Virus genome (UHGV): UHGV-0180032
From: a virus
DNA length: 64,000 bases
Reading direction: 5' to 3' (one strand)
Shown here: positions 24,726 through 56,416 of the stretch, one piece after another
How positions within the stretch are numbered: the stretch's first letter is position 1
Layout of the letters: each line of letters opens with the position of its first letter
The notes under the pieces: generated by a model
Database searches by the model: none
Seen by the model: the letters and a program-made list of their open reading frames with translations, nothing else
What the model was told of the DNA's origin: nothing
Program-made: the position numbers and the translations under genes

Positions 24726-24763
24726 GACCCCGGTTCGTGCCGATTCGTCCGGGGTCCTTTTTA
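24726..24763 (+). terminator. intrinsic terminator
   Basis: GACCCCGG/CCGGGGTC stem followed by CTTTTT. Confidence 0.65.
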
Positions 24764-45221: not shown

Positions 45222-45318
45222 TTAAAACCTCGGATTATAAGTCAGGGTTACATAGTAAAGTCTTTTTACAGTTCATCCTGAACTTATGACCGAGATTATC
45301 TCATAAAGGTAAAGCTCG

Positions 45319-52003: not shown

Positions 52004-52825
52004 ATGTCCGAACCACAATTACTGCGTTCCGTATTGAAGAAAATCAAAAGTCAACGTGAAGATATTCAATCACTGGCTATAACGCTCGGTTATGCGCCGG
52101 GTGACTTACGTTCTAAATCCTACGTGAACGCGTCAAGCATTGTACTCACACCTGATGAGCGCCTTGCTTATGTCCTATACCTGAGACGGTTAGGCTATGT
52201 TTGTGCGTTACCTGAACAACTCCCGTTTACCGATGGGGTGAACCACATCAACTTTTACTCCAACGGTCGTACTACCGTGGGTAAGATGATCAGCAACTTC
52301 TACGCGAAACCTGACGGGTCAAAATTCGACACGATTCACGGTCAGTTCCTGACGTTGGAAGGTTACTATCACTACTTGCGTATCGTTGACTACATGTTAC
52401 ACGTGGGTTATTCGATTAAAGCGATGGGGCGTCTGGAAACCGAGTTTCCTGATATTCTTCGTTTACGTACGTTAACGGGTACCGAGTGTATTCAGTTAGG
52501 CCGTCGATTAAAAGCGGCAATTTACGGGAAAACGGATTACCGTCCGGGTGAGTTTAGTAGCTACGCGACTGGCGCATTTAAGAATGCAGTGCTGCGTAAG
52601 TTACACCTGTTACAATACGACGGGTCTTGTTTAGGTAATACCCTGTCTTACTGCCATTCGATGAATCTTCCGTTCTTGCATTATTACGTTATGAACGGTC
52701 GGGTGATTACACCACCACATTCTGAATGGCTTCCTAATCTGGTGATTTCTATTGTAGAAAACATCGACTATAACGACTCGACGTTCGATATTACGGACGT
52801 CAGTGAACGTATGGGATTAATCTAA
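52004..52825 (+). CDS. hypothetical protein (273 aa)
   Basis: ATG 52004 with GAGG RBS; the ORF-track start at 51962 overlaps the upstream gene. Confidence 0.45.
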   Translation: MSEPQLLRSVLKKIKSQREDIQSLAITLGYAPGDLRSKSYVNASSIVLTPDERLAYVLYLRRLGYVCALPEQLPFTDGVNHINFYSNGRTTVGKMISNFYAKPDGSKFDTIHGQFLTLEGYYHYLRIVDYMLHVGYSIKAMGRLETEFPDILRLRTLTGTECIQLGRRLKAAIYGKTDYRPGEFSSYATGAFKNAVLRKLHLLQYDGSCLGNTLSYCHSMNLPFLHYYVMNGRVITPPHSEWLPNLVISIVENIDYNDSTFDITDVSERMGLI

Positions 52826-53484
52826 TGGGATTGTTCGATACCCTAGCGCGGCTGGATAAAGCGCAGGAAGAAGAAATCATTCGTGTTGCTGGTGAGTCCA
52901 TTAAACACGAAGTCGAAAAGGAATACTGCGTTTGGGTAAAACCGACGCAGGCGGGATGGGATTGGCTCCACGCACAAGAAGCCAAGATGTTCATGGACAT
53001 CCTCATGCCGATAGAAGGCGGGCGTCGTCGTATCCGTATCAAAGAAGACGGTACAGCACAGCTAACGCTTAAGCGTAAATTCCTTGACGGAAAGGTTGAA
53101 GAGAATTCGGATATCGGGATTAGTTCCGCACTCTCTTTTTACAAAGATGGCTATTTGTCACACCTGGTGAAGCGTATTCACTTAGAGCCAGGTGAATTAG
53201 CCGACAAAGGCGCTAAGCATTGGGATATTGATATTTTCAGTATCACCACCGGACACCCTGCCATTGAAGTTTCAGGTGACTTTAACGATCTTATCACTGA
53301 GATGCGTAGTAGCACCAGCGTCGGTGACTGGGTGAAAGTTGAACTGGAAGTCGAACGTTACGAGATTGCGGATGTGTTGTCTGTAATTCCGTTTGAGTTT
53401 GACGGTCATATTCCGGCTACACCGAAAGATCCTGAAGACCAAGAATATCTTCGCGATTACTGGGATTCAGTTACCCGTATGTAA
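52825..53484 (+). CDS. hypothetical protein (219 aa)
   Basis: Start overlaps the upstream stop; terminator follows. Confidence 0.5.
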   Translation: MGLFDTLARLDKAQEEEIIRVAGESIKHEVEKEYCVWVKPTQAGWDWLHAQEAKMFMDILMPIEGGRRRIRIKEDGTAQLTLKRKFLDGKVEENSDIGISSALSFYKDGYLSHLVKRIHLEPGELADKGAKHWDIDIFSITTGHPAIEVSGDFNDLITEMRSSTSVGDWVKVELEVERYEIADVLSVIPFEFDGHIPATPKDPEDQEYLRDYWDSVTRM

Positions 53485-53488
53485 TACC

Positions 53489-53528
53489 TACCCTACTCCT
53501 AGACAGGAGTAGGGTATTTTCATTTTTT
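53489..53528 (+). terminator. intrinsic terminator (CCCTACTCC family)
   Basis: TACCCTACTCC/GGAGTAGGGTA stem followed by TTTTCATTTTTT. Confidence 0.75.
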
Positions 53529-53548
53529 ACCCTAAAGGAGAATTTACC

Positions 53549-53902
53549 ATGCAAGCTCAGTTTTTTAATACACCCAACGGATTCGGTTTTAGATTCCCTG
53601 AATCTGTTATTGAAGTACCCCTCACACGCGGGGTGCTATTAAAACTACGCACCGTTCTTGCCAACTTCTCAGGAAAGACTGTGGATATTCGCGTATGGTC
53701 AGGCTCGGGAAGTCCTGGTGGTGTTTTGTTTGTCGATTACAATTGGATTAAAAGAACAGGTTTTCCGCTTGTACGAAAAGTTGAAGCTGTACACGGATTA
53801 TCCTTCCACACTCTACTAGGGGATTTATCGTTTCCTGAAACCGGCGATTATTCTTCTCCTGCGGATGACGAATACCAAATTCATCTTGTCTTGTTGAAAT
53901 GA
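53549..53902 (+). CDS. hypothetical protein (117 aa)
   Basis: AAAGGAGA RBS. Confidence 0.5.
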   Translation: MQAQFFNTPNGFGFRFPESVIEVPLTRGVLLKLRTVLANFSGKTVDIRVWSGSGSPGGVLFVDYNWIKRTGFPLVRKVEAVHGLSFHTLLGDLSFPETGDYSSPADDEYQIHLVLLK

Positions 53903-53963
53903 TTTTTACAGTTGGGAACAGACTTATGTCTCCCCGAACTACATTCAAGCGGAGAAAACGATT

Positions 53964-54512
53964 ATGCGTACATATATTCTCGAACTTGCAATTTCCGTAG
54001 AGGAACTTGTGGAAAAACTCGGTGGTACTGGACGCGGACTTCATGAGAAGACCAAAAGTATAGCCTATCTTCTCGAACCAAAATACGAACGGAAACTCCA
54101 CATGATTGCTTCCGTTCGCAACAAAGCCTCTCACAGGAGAATTCTTCCCGATCGCATAGACGTCTATGAACAAGCTGTGGAAGAAACGAGGCTCTATTTA
54201 GAAGAGCTGATTAAGAAAATTGAAGAACGGAAACGTCAACGGGCTGCGGAAATGAATGCCCGAGCTGCGGAGATAAACGCCAGATATCTAAATCGTGAAG
54301 CGTTGTGGAAACAGGTAGAAGACGAAATCGAACGTAATGAAGTTGAGACAGAACGCATGAGAGCACAAGCCTTCTCAGCGAATACTGGCTCGTCTACTAC
54401 GGAAGAGAAGAAATGGTCTGATTTGACTGTAGTAGAAAAGATAGGTTGGGGTGCCGGTATTGCAATCATGGGAGCTGCGGTTGCGTACCTTAAAATAAAG
54501 TCTCGCGACTAA
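53964..54512 (+). CDS. HEPN-like (R-x4-H) protein with coiled-coil and C-terminal TM anchor (speculative)
   Basis: GGAGAAAA RBS; N-terminal ...LHMIASVRNKASHRRI contains an R-N-x-x-x-H motif; charged coiled-coil with repeated AAEMNARAAEINAR; C-terminal hydrophobic IGWGAGIAIMGAAVAYL. Confidence 0.3.
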   Translation: MRTYILELAISVEELVEKLGGTGRGLHEKTKSIAYLLEPKYERKLHMIASVRNKASHRRILPDRIDVYEQAVEETRLYLEELIKKIEERKRQRAAEMNARAAEINARYLNREALWKQVEDEIERNEVETERMRAQAFSANTGSSTTEEKKWSDLTVVEKIGWGAGIAIMGAAVAYLKIKSRD

Positions 54513-54526
54513 ATCGGGTATCGGAA

Positions 54527-55072
54527 ATGAAACAAATACAGTTAACTGATCACGTTAATGCGTTTAAACACTTTCTGGATAACGCGGGTATAAAACCTGG
54601 CGAGCAGACAGACGCATGGACTGCACGTGTTTACGGAAGTATTGGCAAAGTCTGTGAGTCCACGACAACACAGGACGGGTTGTTTGTTGCTAAAGCAGTA
54701 GGTATTGCCTTGTGGGATATTGCTGCTCTAGTTTACGTGATGAATAACGGGGATTTACGTCCCCTTGAAAAATCATTACACCGACTACTAGCCATTAAGA
54801 AATGGAAAAATGAACATCCTGAGTCAATCGCGCTTACGTTGATGCCAGAAGCGGTACTTGCTATCAAAGCGGTACGCAGTTGTACCGCCCGTGCACAAAT
54901 GGAGCGTCGGCTACATCTCACGACGCTCTTTTATCAATTGGCCAGAATTGTAAAGATGAACGGCCTAATCTTCGACCGGGTTCTACAGAACGGACGTATA
55001 AGTTGGACAGAAGAACTAAGTAGCTCTCCGTTCTATACAAAACTAAAACTTAAAGACATTTTGAAGGATTAA
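54527..55072 (+). CDS. hypothetical protein (181 aa)
   Basis: ORF. Confidence 0.5.
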   Translation: MKQIQLTDHVNAFKHFLDNAGIKPGEQTDAWTARVYGSIGKVCESTTTQDGLFVAKAVGIALWDIAALVYVMNNGDLRPLEKSLHRLLAIKKWKNEHPESIALTLMPEAVLAIKAVRSCTARAQMERRLHLTTLFYQLARIVKMNGLIFDRVLQNGRISWTEELSSSPFYTKLKLKDILKD

Positions 55073-55073
55073 C

Positions 55074-55382
55074 ATGGAAAACTATTCGGGTTGGGCAATT
55101 TCGCAGTGCATTGGCTATTCTTTACGTTCTTTAGTGCGTACACTTTATAACAAAAACTCAGGCGAAGCTATTACACCACAGTTACTGGACAAATTGGAAG
55201 TCGAAGTTAACCACAAATTAAAGCAGTTACTCGACAACCACGTAAGAACAATGCGTTGGGAGTTCTTGTTACGTGGTAAGAAGCCTTCAATTACCGTTGT
55301 AGCAGAAGGCAGTGAAATTGTTCTCCAATCCAACGCAGACCTGTTTGAAATTTTAACTGAACTAGAAAAGGACAAAATCTGA
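55074..55382 (+). CDS. hypothetical protein (102 aa)
   Basis: Stop overlaps the start of the downstream thymidylate-synthase gene (TGATG). Confidence 0.5.
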
Positions 55383-56416
55383 TGAAACAGTATTTAGCGT
55401 TAATGCAAGACATTCTGGATAACGGTGTTGTCAAGAAAGACCGCACAGGCGTAGGGACACTTTCTGTATTTGGCCGTCAATTACGTTTTGACTTGAAAGA
55501 AGGTTTCCCATTAGTTACTACGAAAAAGGTTCACCTGAAAAGTATCATCCATGAGCTGTTGTGGTTCTTAAACGGTGACACTAACGTGAAGTACCTGCAA
55601 GAGAACGGGGTAAAAATTTGGAACGAATGGGCGAATGAAGAAGGGAACTTAGGGCCAGTATATGGTAAACAGTGGCGTGAATGGCGAGACTGTAAGGTTG
55701 TGGAAAGCCATGACGTAGGACGTACACAACAACTAATGCAGCGGGGTTACAAGTATATCGGGAATATGAAGGAAGATGGCACAACGTATTTGGTTTATGA
55801 AAAACCACATGACCAGATCAGTAAAGTTATCCAACAGCTTCGTGAAGACCCAGATTCTCGTCGTATTATCGTTAGTGCCTGGAACGTAGCCGACCTGGAC
55901 GATATGGCACTTAACCCATGTCACAACTATTTCCAATTCTACACTACGGAAATGTCACTGCTTGAGCGACTGGATTGGTACGAAGTAAACGAGCCGGAAA
56001 AATTTGCGAACGCACCGCTTATTAATCACGAAGATATTGATGATGAAGAACGACTTCATGAAACTTTAGATCGTGAGGGCATCCCACGCCGTAAGCTTTC
56101 ATGTTTTTACATGATGCGCAGCAACGATTACCTACTTGGCGCGCCATTTAACATCGCTTCTTACGCACTGTTAACCTATATGGTTGCTCAACAACTGAAC
56201 ATGGTTCCAGACGAGTTGGTTTATAGTGGTGTGGACGTTCATCTGTATTCCAACCATCTGGAGCAAGCAAAACTTCAGCTTACACGCGAACCCTACACGT
56301 TACCTAAACTGGTTATCAAACGTAAACCTGATTCTATCTTCGATTACAAATACGAAGACTTCGAATTAGTCGGCTATCAAGCTCATCCACATATTGCTGC
56401 CCCCGTCGCAGTATAA
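55382..56416 (+). CDS. thyA: thymidylate synthase family enzyme (ThyA-like; dUMP-dependent) with two insertions
   Basis: Collinear with E. coli ThyA as recalled: [55 protein letters not shown], catalytic PCH-FQFY, RS-D...[10 protein letters not shown] (Asn retained, so dUMP not dCMP), PKL.IKRKP.SIFDY..EDFE; about 38-aa and about 50-aa insertions. Confidence 0.85.

Follow-up and report, generated by a model that had tools for sequence, protein, structure and literature searches.

A stretch of 64,000 nucleotides from UHGV virus genome UHGV-0180032 (here termed 'the window') carries, at positions 53,964 to 54,512 of its plus strand (on which the gene features described below also lie), an ATG-started open reading frame (ORF) of 182 codons plus a stop codon, whose product is predicted to comprise a HEPN domain, a helical stalk, a flexible linker and a C-terminal hydrophobic anchor. 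A HEPN-like protein, possibly a membrane-tethered ribonuclease (RNase), had been proposed for this gene from its sequence (the 'original prediction'), and the analysis described here followed up that proposal. The ORF is real and under purifying selection; the ratio of nonsynonymous to synonymous substitution rates (dN/dS) for its HEPN part (residues 1-85) is 0.14-0.30 when compared with six alleles. A Shine-Dalgarno-like GGAG (53,951-53,954), kept in the aligned long alleles, lies 9 nucleotides 5' of the ATG. The predicted catalytic Rx4H motif is encoded by codons R52-N53-K54-A55-S56-H57 (54,117-54,134), in the context H-M47-I-A-S-V-R52-N53-K-A-S-H57-R-R, and the exact R-[NHK]-x-x-x-H arrangement previously described for the N-terminal 60 amino acids is indeed read in the translation. 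By itself the motif is weak evidence, and the caution that it can arise by chance was well placed: the stop-free segments of the window contain the pattern R[NHKD]xxxH 19 times, with an expectation of ~0.05 per 182-residue protein.

The first 85 residues (53,964-54,218) are predicted to form a 'mini-HEPN' (DUF4145-like) domain with helices at residues 2-18, 26-32, 39-58 and 65-85. AlphaFold2 returned predicted local distance difference test (pLDDT) values above 90 for residues 1-100 of the full protein and, for the domain alone with a 46-sequence alignment, a mean pLDDT of 97.7 and a predicted template modelling score (pTM) of 0.87. The predicted structure is an all-alpha bundle of two helical hairpins, the arrangement by which the HEPN superfamily (Pfam clan CL0291) is recognized, and its fold matches include YutE (1ylm), HepT (5yep), the HEPN toxins 7ae2 and 8xdj, TT1696, the HEPN domain of sacsin, Roquin, Csm6, HepS and AbiA. 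Because some unrelated helical bundles also reach fold scores of 6-8, a fold match alone is no proof. In the model, motif residues 52-57 lie at the C-terminal end of helix 39-58 and are followed by a loop (59-64) and by the helix that starts at residue 65; this modelled position agrees with that of the HEPN Rx4-6H site, which has been placed where the third helix ends and the loop leading to the last helix begins (Anantharaman et al. 2013, Biol Direct 8:15). The form expected of that site, with a polar residue (N, D or H) after the arginine and conservation throughout the family, is likewise seen in R52-N53-K-A-S-H57. Glu13 (54,000-54,002), an acidic residue in the first long helix that is invariant in alignments of 48 and of 46 diverse relatives, may lie near the motif and probably corresponds to the acidic residue that precedes the motif in HEPN active sites.

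Judged from profile comparisons, membership of the HEPN family is transitive, through relatives, and not direct. The profile search against HEPN families that had been suggested as a check accordingly gave a divided answer. The protein itself stays below threshold both with DUF4145 (residues 10-62 aligned to model positions 20-75 of 88; E 0.023, 15.2 bits, cutoff 23.1) and, in the motif region, with Abi_2 (E 0.07, 13.9 bits, cutoff 25.6), whereas DUF4145 is matched by ten of 48 relatives (best 5.5e-7), other relatives match HEPN_Apea, RiboL-PSP and DUF3644, and the family consensus matches HepT-like, RiboL-PSP and DUF4145. A plasmid-encoded homologue (45-54% identical) passes the curated HEPN_RiboL-PSP model, with 38.6 bits against a cutoff of 28.4, and several members, including an 86-residue allele from the same slot of a related phage genome, are named 'DUF4145 domain-containing protein' by NCBI/UniRef. 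DUF4145 (PF13643, clan CL0291) is itself accepted as a divergent member of the HEPN families (Anantharaman et al. 2013, Biol Direct 8:15). Membership of Abi_2 (AbiD/AbiF-like, PF07751) was rejected: only residues 29-60 align, to model positions 149-181 of ~184, and the preceding ~150 positions have no equivalent. Matches to PtuB and TrlF were disregarded on the grounds that they are located in the charged stalk. Profile searches of PDB sequences yielded coiled-coil noise and a marginal match to HepS (E 1.1), and a viral fold search in BFVD was uninformative (best E 0.095).

It is conservation across the family, and not the motif itself, that lifts the motif above chance. When a profile of residues 1-90 was searched exhaustively with HMMER, at least 348 representative clusters (50% identity) were recovered at E <= 1e-3. 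RNxxxH is kept in 144 of the 148 representatives listed; among those 144, the motif falls inside the first 90 residues in 135, and 111 have a hydrophobic segment C-terminal to the domain, so that an N-terminal HEPN domain with a C-terminal transmembrane segment appears, by sequence, to be the dominant architecture of the family. Two tandem HEPN domains occur in one chain in at least ten of the 148. Across alignments of 46-48 diverse relatives, E13, R52, N53 and H57 are the sole invariant residues. The confident bundle, the motif position, this conservation and the links to known families together bear out the HEPN-like assignment of the original prediction, and the outcome that would have spoken against it, a predicted structure other than a HEPN bundle, did not arise.

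Closer to the window, 56 homologues were found with E <= 0.01, all from the same phage lineage and on phage-like contigs of ~222-226 kilobases (kb) or fragments of these. A search for related loci with the close alignment likewise returned only this lineage in IMG/VR, together with two weak bacterial matches. R52, N53, K54 and H57 are invariant in 18 phage alleles. Both ends of the protein are highly conserved among alleles, namely residues 1-85 and the anchor (the last ~25 residues), and the last 32 codons carry no amino acid change in three alleles. The segment between them varies by indels, which fall in the stalk and linker and give allele lengths of 136, 154, 175, 180, 182, 186 and 191 residues.

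The stalk itself (residues 86-139; 54,219-54,380) is predicted to be a charged helix, continuous with the last HEPN helix and variable in length between alleles; AlphaFold2 models residues 65-139 as a single continuous helix, with pLDDT values of ~79-96 per ten-residue block. Charged residues or glutamine (E, K, R, D, Q) make up 48% of the helix that follows the motif, and hydrophobic residues 22%. Since its heptad periodicity is not above that of shuffles (p ~0.1), the segment is named here a 'charged helical stalk' and not a coiled coil. The charged segment of the original prediction is thus retained, whereas its coiled coil is not established, and a charged single-helix stalk fits at least as well. 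The internal tandem repeat described earlier within this helix is present as a two-copy direct repeat of 21 base pairs (bp) at 54,240-54,281, which encodes RAAEMNA (54,240-54,260) and RAAEINA (54,261-54,281) in copies identical at 17 of 21 nucleotides; Tandem Repeats Finder reported no 2 x 21-bp repeat, the array being too short for that program, and the repeat was confirmed by hand. The 175-residue alleles differ from the 182-residue form by the loss of exactly one 7-residue copy.

The stalk leads into a low-confidence linker and juxtamembrane segment (residues 140-159; 54,381-54,440; pLDDT below 50 at 140-151) that includes Trp151 in a K-W-S-D motif. This tryptophan is invariant in the phage alleles, even where their linkers are unalignable, and in relatives from plasmids, a Pseudomonas prophage and metagenomes the anchor is likewise preceded by W-[SA]-[DES]. 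The C-terminal hydrophobic tail noted in the original prediction corresponds to the Gly/Ala-rich segment I160-L176 (IGWGAGIAIMGAAVAYL; 54,441-54,491), which on hydropathy and conservation is the predicted membrane anchor and is followed by KIKSRD. Within it, I160, G165, I166, A167, I168 and A172 are invariant across alleles with unalignable linkers, and small-xxx-small pairs are formed by G161/G165, G163/A167, A167/A171 and G170/A174. Compared with C-tail-anchored inner-membrane proteins, the protein has an acidic, helical N-terminus and a single hydrophobic segment (160-176) followed by six residues, but its hydropathy is borderline and its basic tail speaks against translocation. A membrane anchor is supported at the level of the family, by the 111 of 144 relatives with a hydrophobic segment after the domain. 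Given the lack of a signal peptide, the large size and charged character of the N-terminal part and the cytoplasmic location of RNA, the N-terminus would be expected to face the cytoplasm, with the C-terminal segment acting as a tail anchor. A relationship to the ElaB/YqjD-type DUF883_C glycine zipper (PF19029) was considered and set aside, as six C-terminal tails from the family gave no match at E <= 10.

The closest relative outside the phage lineage is WP_096194944.1, a protein of 293 residues, annotated only as hypothetical, from 3.6-kb mobilizable ColE1-type Escherichia coli plasmids (NZ_CP148488.1). The homology spans the full length of the phage protein (identity 54% in the HEPN domain and 45% across 185 residues) and takes in the stalk, the W-S motif next to the membrane and an anchor of the GIAIG type, but the plasmid protein contains two tandem HEPN domains instead of one, and its gene overlaps a downstream Gly/Ala-rich ORF of 172 residues that the phage lacks. 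On the plasmid (L018, 683-2066) these two genes are the only cargo, and the 172-residue ORF has a weak match to the DUF883_C glycine zipper (E 0.025); the pair may be an addiction or defence cassette. A further relative, of 138 residues, is encoded in a Pseudomonas prophage, with tail-assembly genes on one side and portal/terminase genes on the other, and the planctomycete members are stand-alone chromosomal genes with no conserved neighbour. A DEAD-box helicase, the end of whose gene overlaps a HEPN-anchor gene by 4 bp in Frigoriglobus tundricola (L013, 4505-6354), was rejected as a partner, the arrangement being unseen in three other planctomycete loci.

HEPN RNases serve as the effectors of Cas13, of Csm6, of many toxin-antitoxin pairs and of several recently solved single-gene defences; to our knowledge, those that have been studied are almost all soluble and are switched on by a ligand or a partner. 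Proven monogenic HEPN/DUF4145 defence effectors include RAZR (PMC13017515), BxaP (PMC10799925), Ishtar (bioRxiv 10.64898/2026.07.06.735840) and the prophage protein HepS (PMC13043305). The first of these (RAZR/PD-T7-4) is a DUF4145 RNase that depends on its Arg and His, R146 and H154 (Nature 2026, PMC13017515). The phage protein resembles DUF4145 members in its 'mini-HEPN' of ~85-90 residues with a conserved Arg...His site, and BxaP and Ishtar in the location of that domain at the N-terminus of a single-gene effector. However, RAZR, BxaP and Ishtar are soluble, bacterial and equipped with a sensor or partner domain (zinc finger, HEAT, beta-rich domain), whereas the phage protein is phage-encoded and carries only a stalk and predicted membrane anchor, without a sensor domain; the spacing of R146 and H154 in RAZR is also wider than the strict R-N-x3-H seen here. 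HepS, a single-protein abortive-infection system of the Salmonella Gifsy-1 prophage (Nature 2026, PMC13043305; PDB 9oij/9oik), differs in being a soluble tetramer of ~212-218 residues with no membrane anchor and marginal sequence similarity; its activators are tail-tip proteins of siphoviruses, and it cuts tRNAs in their anticodon loops. HepT of the HepT-MNT systems (DUF86, type II/VII toxin-antitoxin) also has no membrane anchor and bears an Rx4HxY signature, where residue 59 of the phage protein is Arg; no minimal nucleotidyltransferase (MNT) gene is adjacent in the phage or in any relative examined.

Membrane association of HEPN domains has itself been described, in three groups recognized in a survey from 2013: DUF4145 behind an N-terminal transmembrane helix with a 'WP' signature, Abi2/Swt1-type domains behind one transmembrane helix, and, in Planctomyces, an N-terminal HEPN domain followed by two transmembrane helices and a Zn-ribbon (Anantharaman et al. 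2013, Biol Direct 8:15). All have in common with the phage protein that a HEPN RNase is predicted on the cytoplasmic side of the inner membrane and attached to it. The third group shares, in addition, the order of HEPN and transmembrane segment, and it comes from planctomycetes, in which many of the best relatives also occur; one relative (P0089) has Zn-ribbon-like CxxC pairs before its C-terminal transmembrane segment. A single-pass C-terminal tail anchor with a charged stalk falls outside these three groups, none of which was reported from phage, and literature searches found no experimental study of any of them or of the present family. Searches of 50,697 deposited phage genomes by tblastn, with the protein and with the family consensus, gave no match. 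The view that such a protein would be unusual in a phage holds in the restricted sense that these searches found none, but membrane-associated HEPN domains as a class have been known since 2013.

The source of the window, as judged from neighbouring proteins and gene order, is a chimallivirus of the SPN3US/Asesino type, a giant, nucleus-forming phage infecting enterobacteria: both match Salmonella phage SPN3US (Seoulvirus, Chimalliviridae) and Erwinia phages Asesino and phiEaH2, and the RNase H-like protein is ~63-66% identical in amino acid sequence to those of the three phages. A megablast of the window against the same 50,697 deposited phage records found no match. Over 8 kb, this phage lineage shares 94.6% identity with 'plasmid unnamed1' (NZ_CP134650.1), a circular molecule of 222,441 bp that belongs to a complete genome of Enterobacter ludwigii, and it is also found on 222-226 kb contigs in assemblies of many Salmonella, Shigella and E. 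coli isolates, as well as in IMG/VR. This recurrence in bacterial assemblies suggests either a carrier or episomal state or frequent co-isolation.

Comparison of related genomes places the HEPN gene within a hypervariable three-gene cassette with conserved flanks (53,549-55,072), in which it is preceded by an ORF of 117 residues and followed by one of 181 residues, upstream of thymidylate synthase. The surrounding block, which includes RNase H, ThyA and a MazG-like gene, consists of nucleotide-metabolism and early/middle-type genes. In two related genomes (L006 and L009) the flanking genes are 97-99% identical to those of the window in amino acid sequence; the identities fall to 35% for the 117-residue ORF and 30% for the HEPN gene in L006, from which the 181-residue ORF is absent, and to 61%, 59% and 40% for the three genes in L009. 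The slot in L006 is the one that holds the 86-residue allele. In SPN3US the whole neighbourhood is present in the same order, but an unrelated gene of 140 residues occupies the HEPN position.

The 61-nucleotide spacer upstream of the HEPN gene contains a promoter-like element, TTTTTACAGTT-N10-ACTTATG (53,903-53,928), of which the core TAC..TT...TTATG is kept in 6/6 aligned genomes, including that with the very divergent 86-residue allele. The element resembles the middle-promoter motif of phiKZ, AAanTTACc (at ~-24, with TATG at +1), and may act as a promoter by that analogy; no sigma-70-like promoter was found within 52,800-55,500. A second full copy of TTTTTACAGTT-N10-ACTTATG lies at 45,263-45,288, upstream of another plus-strand ORF, and TTTTTAC is found at 24,758, 32,548, 45,263, 53,524 and 53,903 of the plus strand, in each case intergenic and no more than 90 nucleotides upstream of one of five plus-strand ORFs.

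The reading that we favour, and regard as probable though well short of secure, is that the gene product is a HEPN endoribonuclease of the DUF4145-like 'mini-HEPN' branch, stand-alone and tail-anchored, that is used in conflicts between mobile elements. Its catalysis, dimerization, topology, substrate and role are all inferred, and the mechanism envisaged is as follows. Residues 1-85 would form the HEPN helical bundle, with R52, N53 and H57 at the end of the third helix and E13 probably nearby; the last HEPN helix would be prolonged as a charged stalk of ~55 residues and connect, through a short flexible linker, to a Gly/Ala-rich C-terminal helix inserted in the inner membrane, leaving the HEPN domain in the cytoplasm. 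Two HEPN domains would pair, as in other HEPN RNases, to create a composite, metal-independent active site; such pairing is implied by general knowledge of HEPN proteins and by the relatives with tandem domains, and could be brought about by the small-residue anchor helix, by the stalk, or by both. RNA cleavage would then be restricted to a layer adjacent to the membrane, whose thickness would be set by stalk length, and the role would be the exclusion or abortive restriction of competing phages or plasmids. A function in conflict is favoured because the locus is accessory and hypervariable, because the nearest relatives are found on small plasmids and in an accessory-gene slot of a prophage, and because single-gene HEPN/DUF4145 proteins, including the prophage protein HepS, are proven defence effectors.

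A large branch of at least 348 clusters at 50% identity would thus have a predicted membrane anchor as its sole appendage, with close versions carried by a nucleus-forming jumbo phage, by small ColE1-type plasmids and by a prophage. If the protein is active, RNA cleavage would be governed by location and not by an allosteric sensor, and this would be the first nuclease of such a kind assigned to a chimallivirus. Genes for phage-phage competition in this lineage could also be sought in the hypervariable three-gene slot. In a chimallivirus infection, RNA is the only phage nucleic acid exposed in the cytoplasm, and the membrane tether might act as a spatial filter of self and non-self among nucleus-forming phages, although this we consider a long shot. 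Under such a scheme, the mRNAs of the resident phage would exit a central protein-shelled nucleus, while the tail-anchored RNase would coat the cytoplasmic face of the inner membrane and also the inner-membrane-derived early phage infection (EPI) vesicles in which the genomes of superinfecting chimalliviruses are contained. The RNase would cut the early transcripts of incoming competitors, or other freshly injected nucleic acids, on their emergence and would spare the resident phage. The length of the stalk (alleles of 136-191 residues, with a heptad-sized indel) would determine, in an arms race, how far the nuclease can reach.

Several observations weigh against a membrane-tethered RNase of mobile-element conflict. 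The anchor-less 86-residue allele occupies the same slot and lacks both stalk and anchor, which argues that membrane tethering is not essential to the function of that slot. The best 19-residue Kyte-Doolittle mean of the C-terminal segment is 1.54, a borderline value for a transmembrane helix; AlphaFold2 confidence is low at the anchor; and the basic KIKSRD tail contradicts the positive-inside rule for a tail anchor with its N-terminus inside and its C-terminus outside. RNase activity is deduced, for the family as a whole, from sequence and predicted fold, and the protein reaches no curated threshold in Pfam, NCBIfam or PADLOC, its matches in PHROGs being likewise sub-threshold. No neutralizing or antitoxin partner was found beside the phage gene or the relatives examined, which leaves the tolerance of a constitutive RNase unexplained. 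Finally, the planctomycete relatives sit among housekeeping genes and not in defence islands, and the family may therefore have a role outside conflict.

The main rival, which we think unlikely, accepts the same membrane-anchored HEPN RNase and assigns it to host takeover, such that host transcripts would be degraded at the inner membrane, where RNase E and the co-translational insertion of membrane proteins are located in E. coli. Degradation would bring about host shut-off and supply recycled nucleotides to a phage equipped with its own RNA polymerases and thymidylate synthase. This idea accords with the position of the gene in a block of nucleotide-metabolism and early/middle-type genes (RNase H, ThyA, MazG-like), with its own phiKZ-middle-promoter-like element, and with a carrier that is a virulent-type jumbo phage and not a classical temperate one. 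However, the gene is dispensable at the level of the lineage, being absent from SPN3US and from all deposited chimalliviruses, its hypervariability is unlike that of core takeover functions, and its closest relatives are on small plasmids or in a prophage, where host shut-off makes no sense.

Ranked second, and somewhat more doubtful again, is an inactive or non-nuclease protein with a HEPN fold: a membrane-tethered adaptor that binds RNA, nucleotide or protein and brings ribosomes, mRNAs or some phage structure into place at the membrane, the R, N and H residues serving in binding. Several HEPN families are indeed non-catalytic binders (nucleotidyltransferase-associated, MtlR and Roquin types), the absence of an antitoxin or immunity partner is easier to square with a harmless protein, and the housekeeping neighbourhoods of the planctomycete relatives point in the same direction. 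Loss of the Rx4-6H motif, however, is characteristic of non-catalytic HEPN families (Anantharaman et al. 2013, Biol Direct 8:15), whereas here the arginine, the polar asparagine that follows it, the histidine and the upstream glutamate are invariant over hundreds of divergent sequences.

It is very improbable that the C-terminal helix is itself the effector, in a lysis-related or pore-forming protein (holin- or antiholin-like, or a depolarizing toxin) for which the N-terminal domain would be the regulator. The anchor is rich in small-xxx-small pairs and more conserved than a passive anchor requires, and the plasmid homologue is followed by a Gly/Ala-rich ORF; but no lysis genes are adjacent to the HEPN gene, the 86-residue allele retains the HEPN domain and drops the helix, which identifies the HEPN domain as the conserved core of the slot, and relatives carry from one to seven transmembrane segments of unrelated sequence, a pattern that suits an anchor better than a specific pore. 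A chance motif in a generic helical protein with no relationship to HEPN, for which the 19 occurrences in the window and the lack of any curated family match might be cited, is effectively refuted by family-wide invariance, fold matches, motif position and transitive Pfam links.

The genes that flank the HEPN gene within the cassette were considered as partners and rejected. The 117-residue ORF has no detectable relatives near other members of the family. The 181-residue ORF corresponds to the N-terminal half of a split homologue of SPN3US gp038 and is present in phages without the HEPN gene; it and an adjacent 102-residue ORF (54,527-55,382 for the two together) represent a split form of that 289-residue protein (phrog_10269, unknown function). 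A strong terminator-like hairpin (53,489-53,516), with a 12-bp stem, six G-C pairs and a T-rich tail, lies directly 3' of an ORF of 219 residues and just before one of the TTTTTAC motifs. Downstream of the cassette, the thymidylate synthase ORF (55,382-56,416) encodes 344 residues, comparable to the 339-346 residues found in SPN3US and related contigs; bacterial ThyA proteins are ~264-280 residues long, and the enzyme encoded in the window probably carries an insertion.

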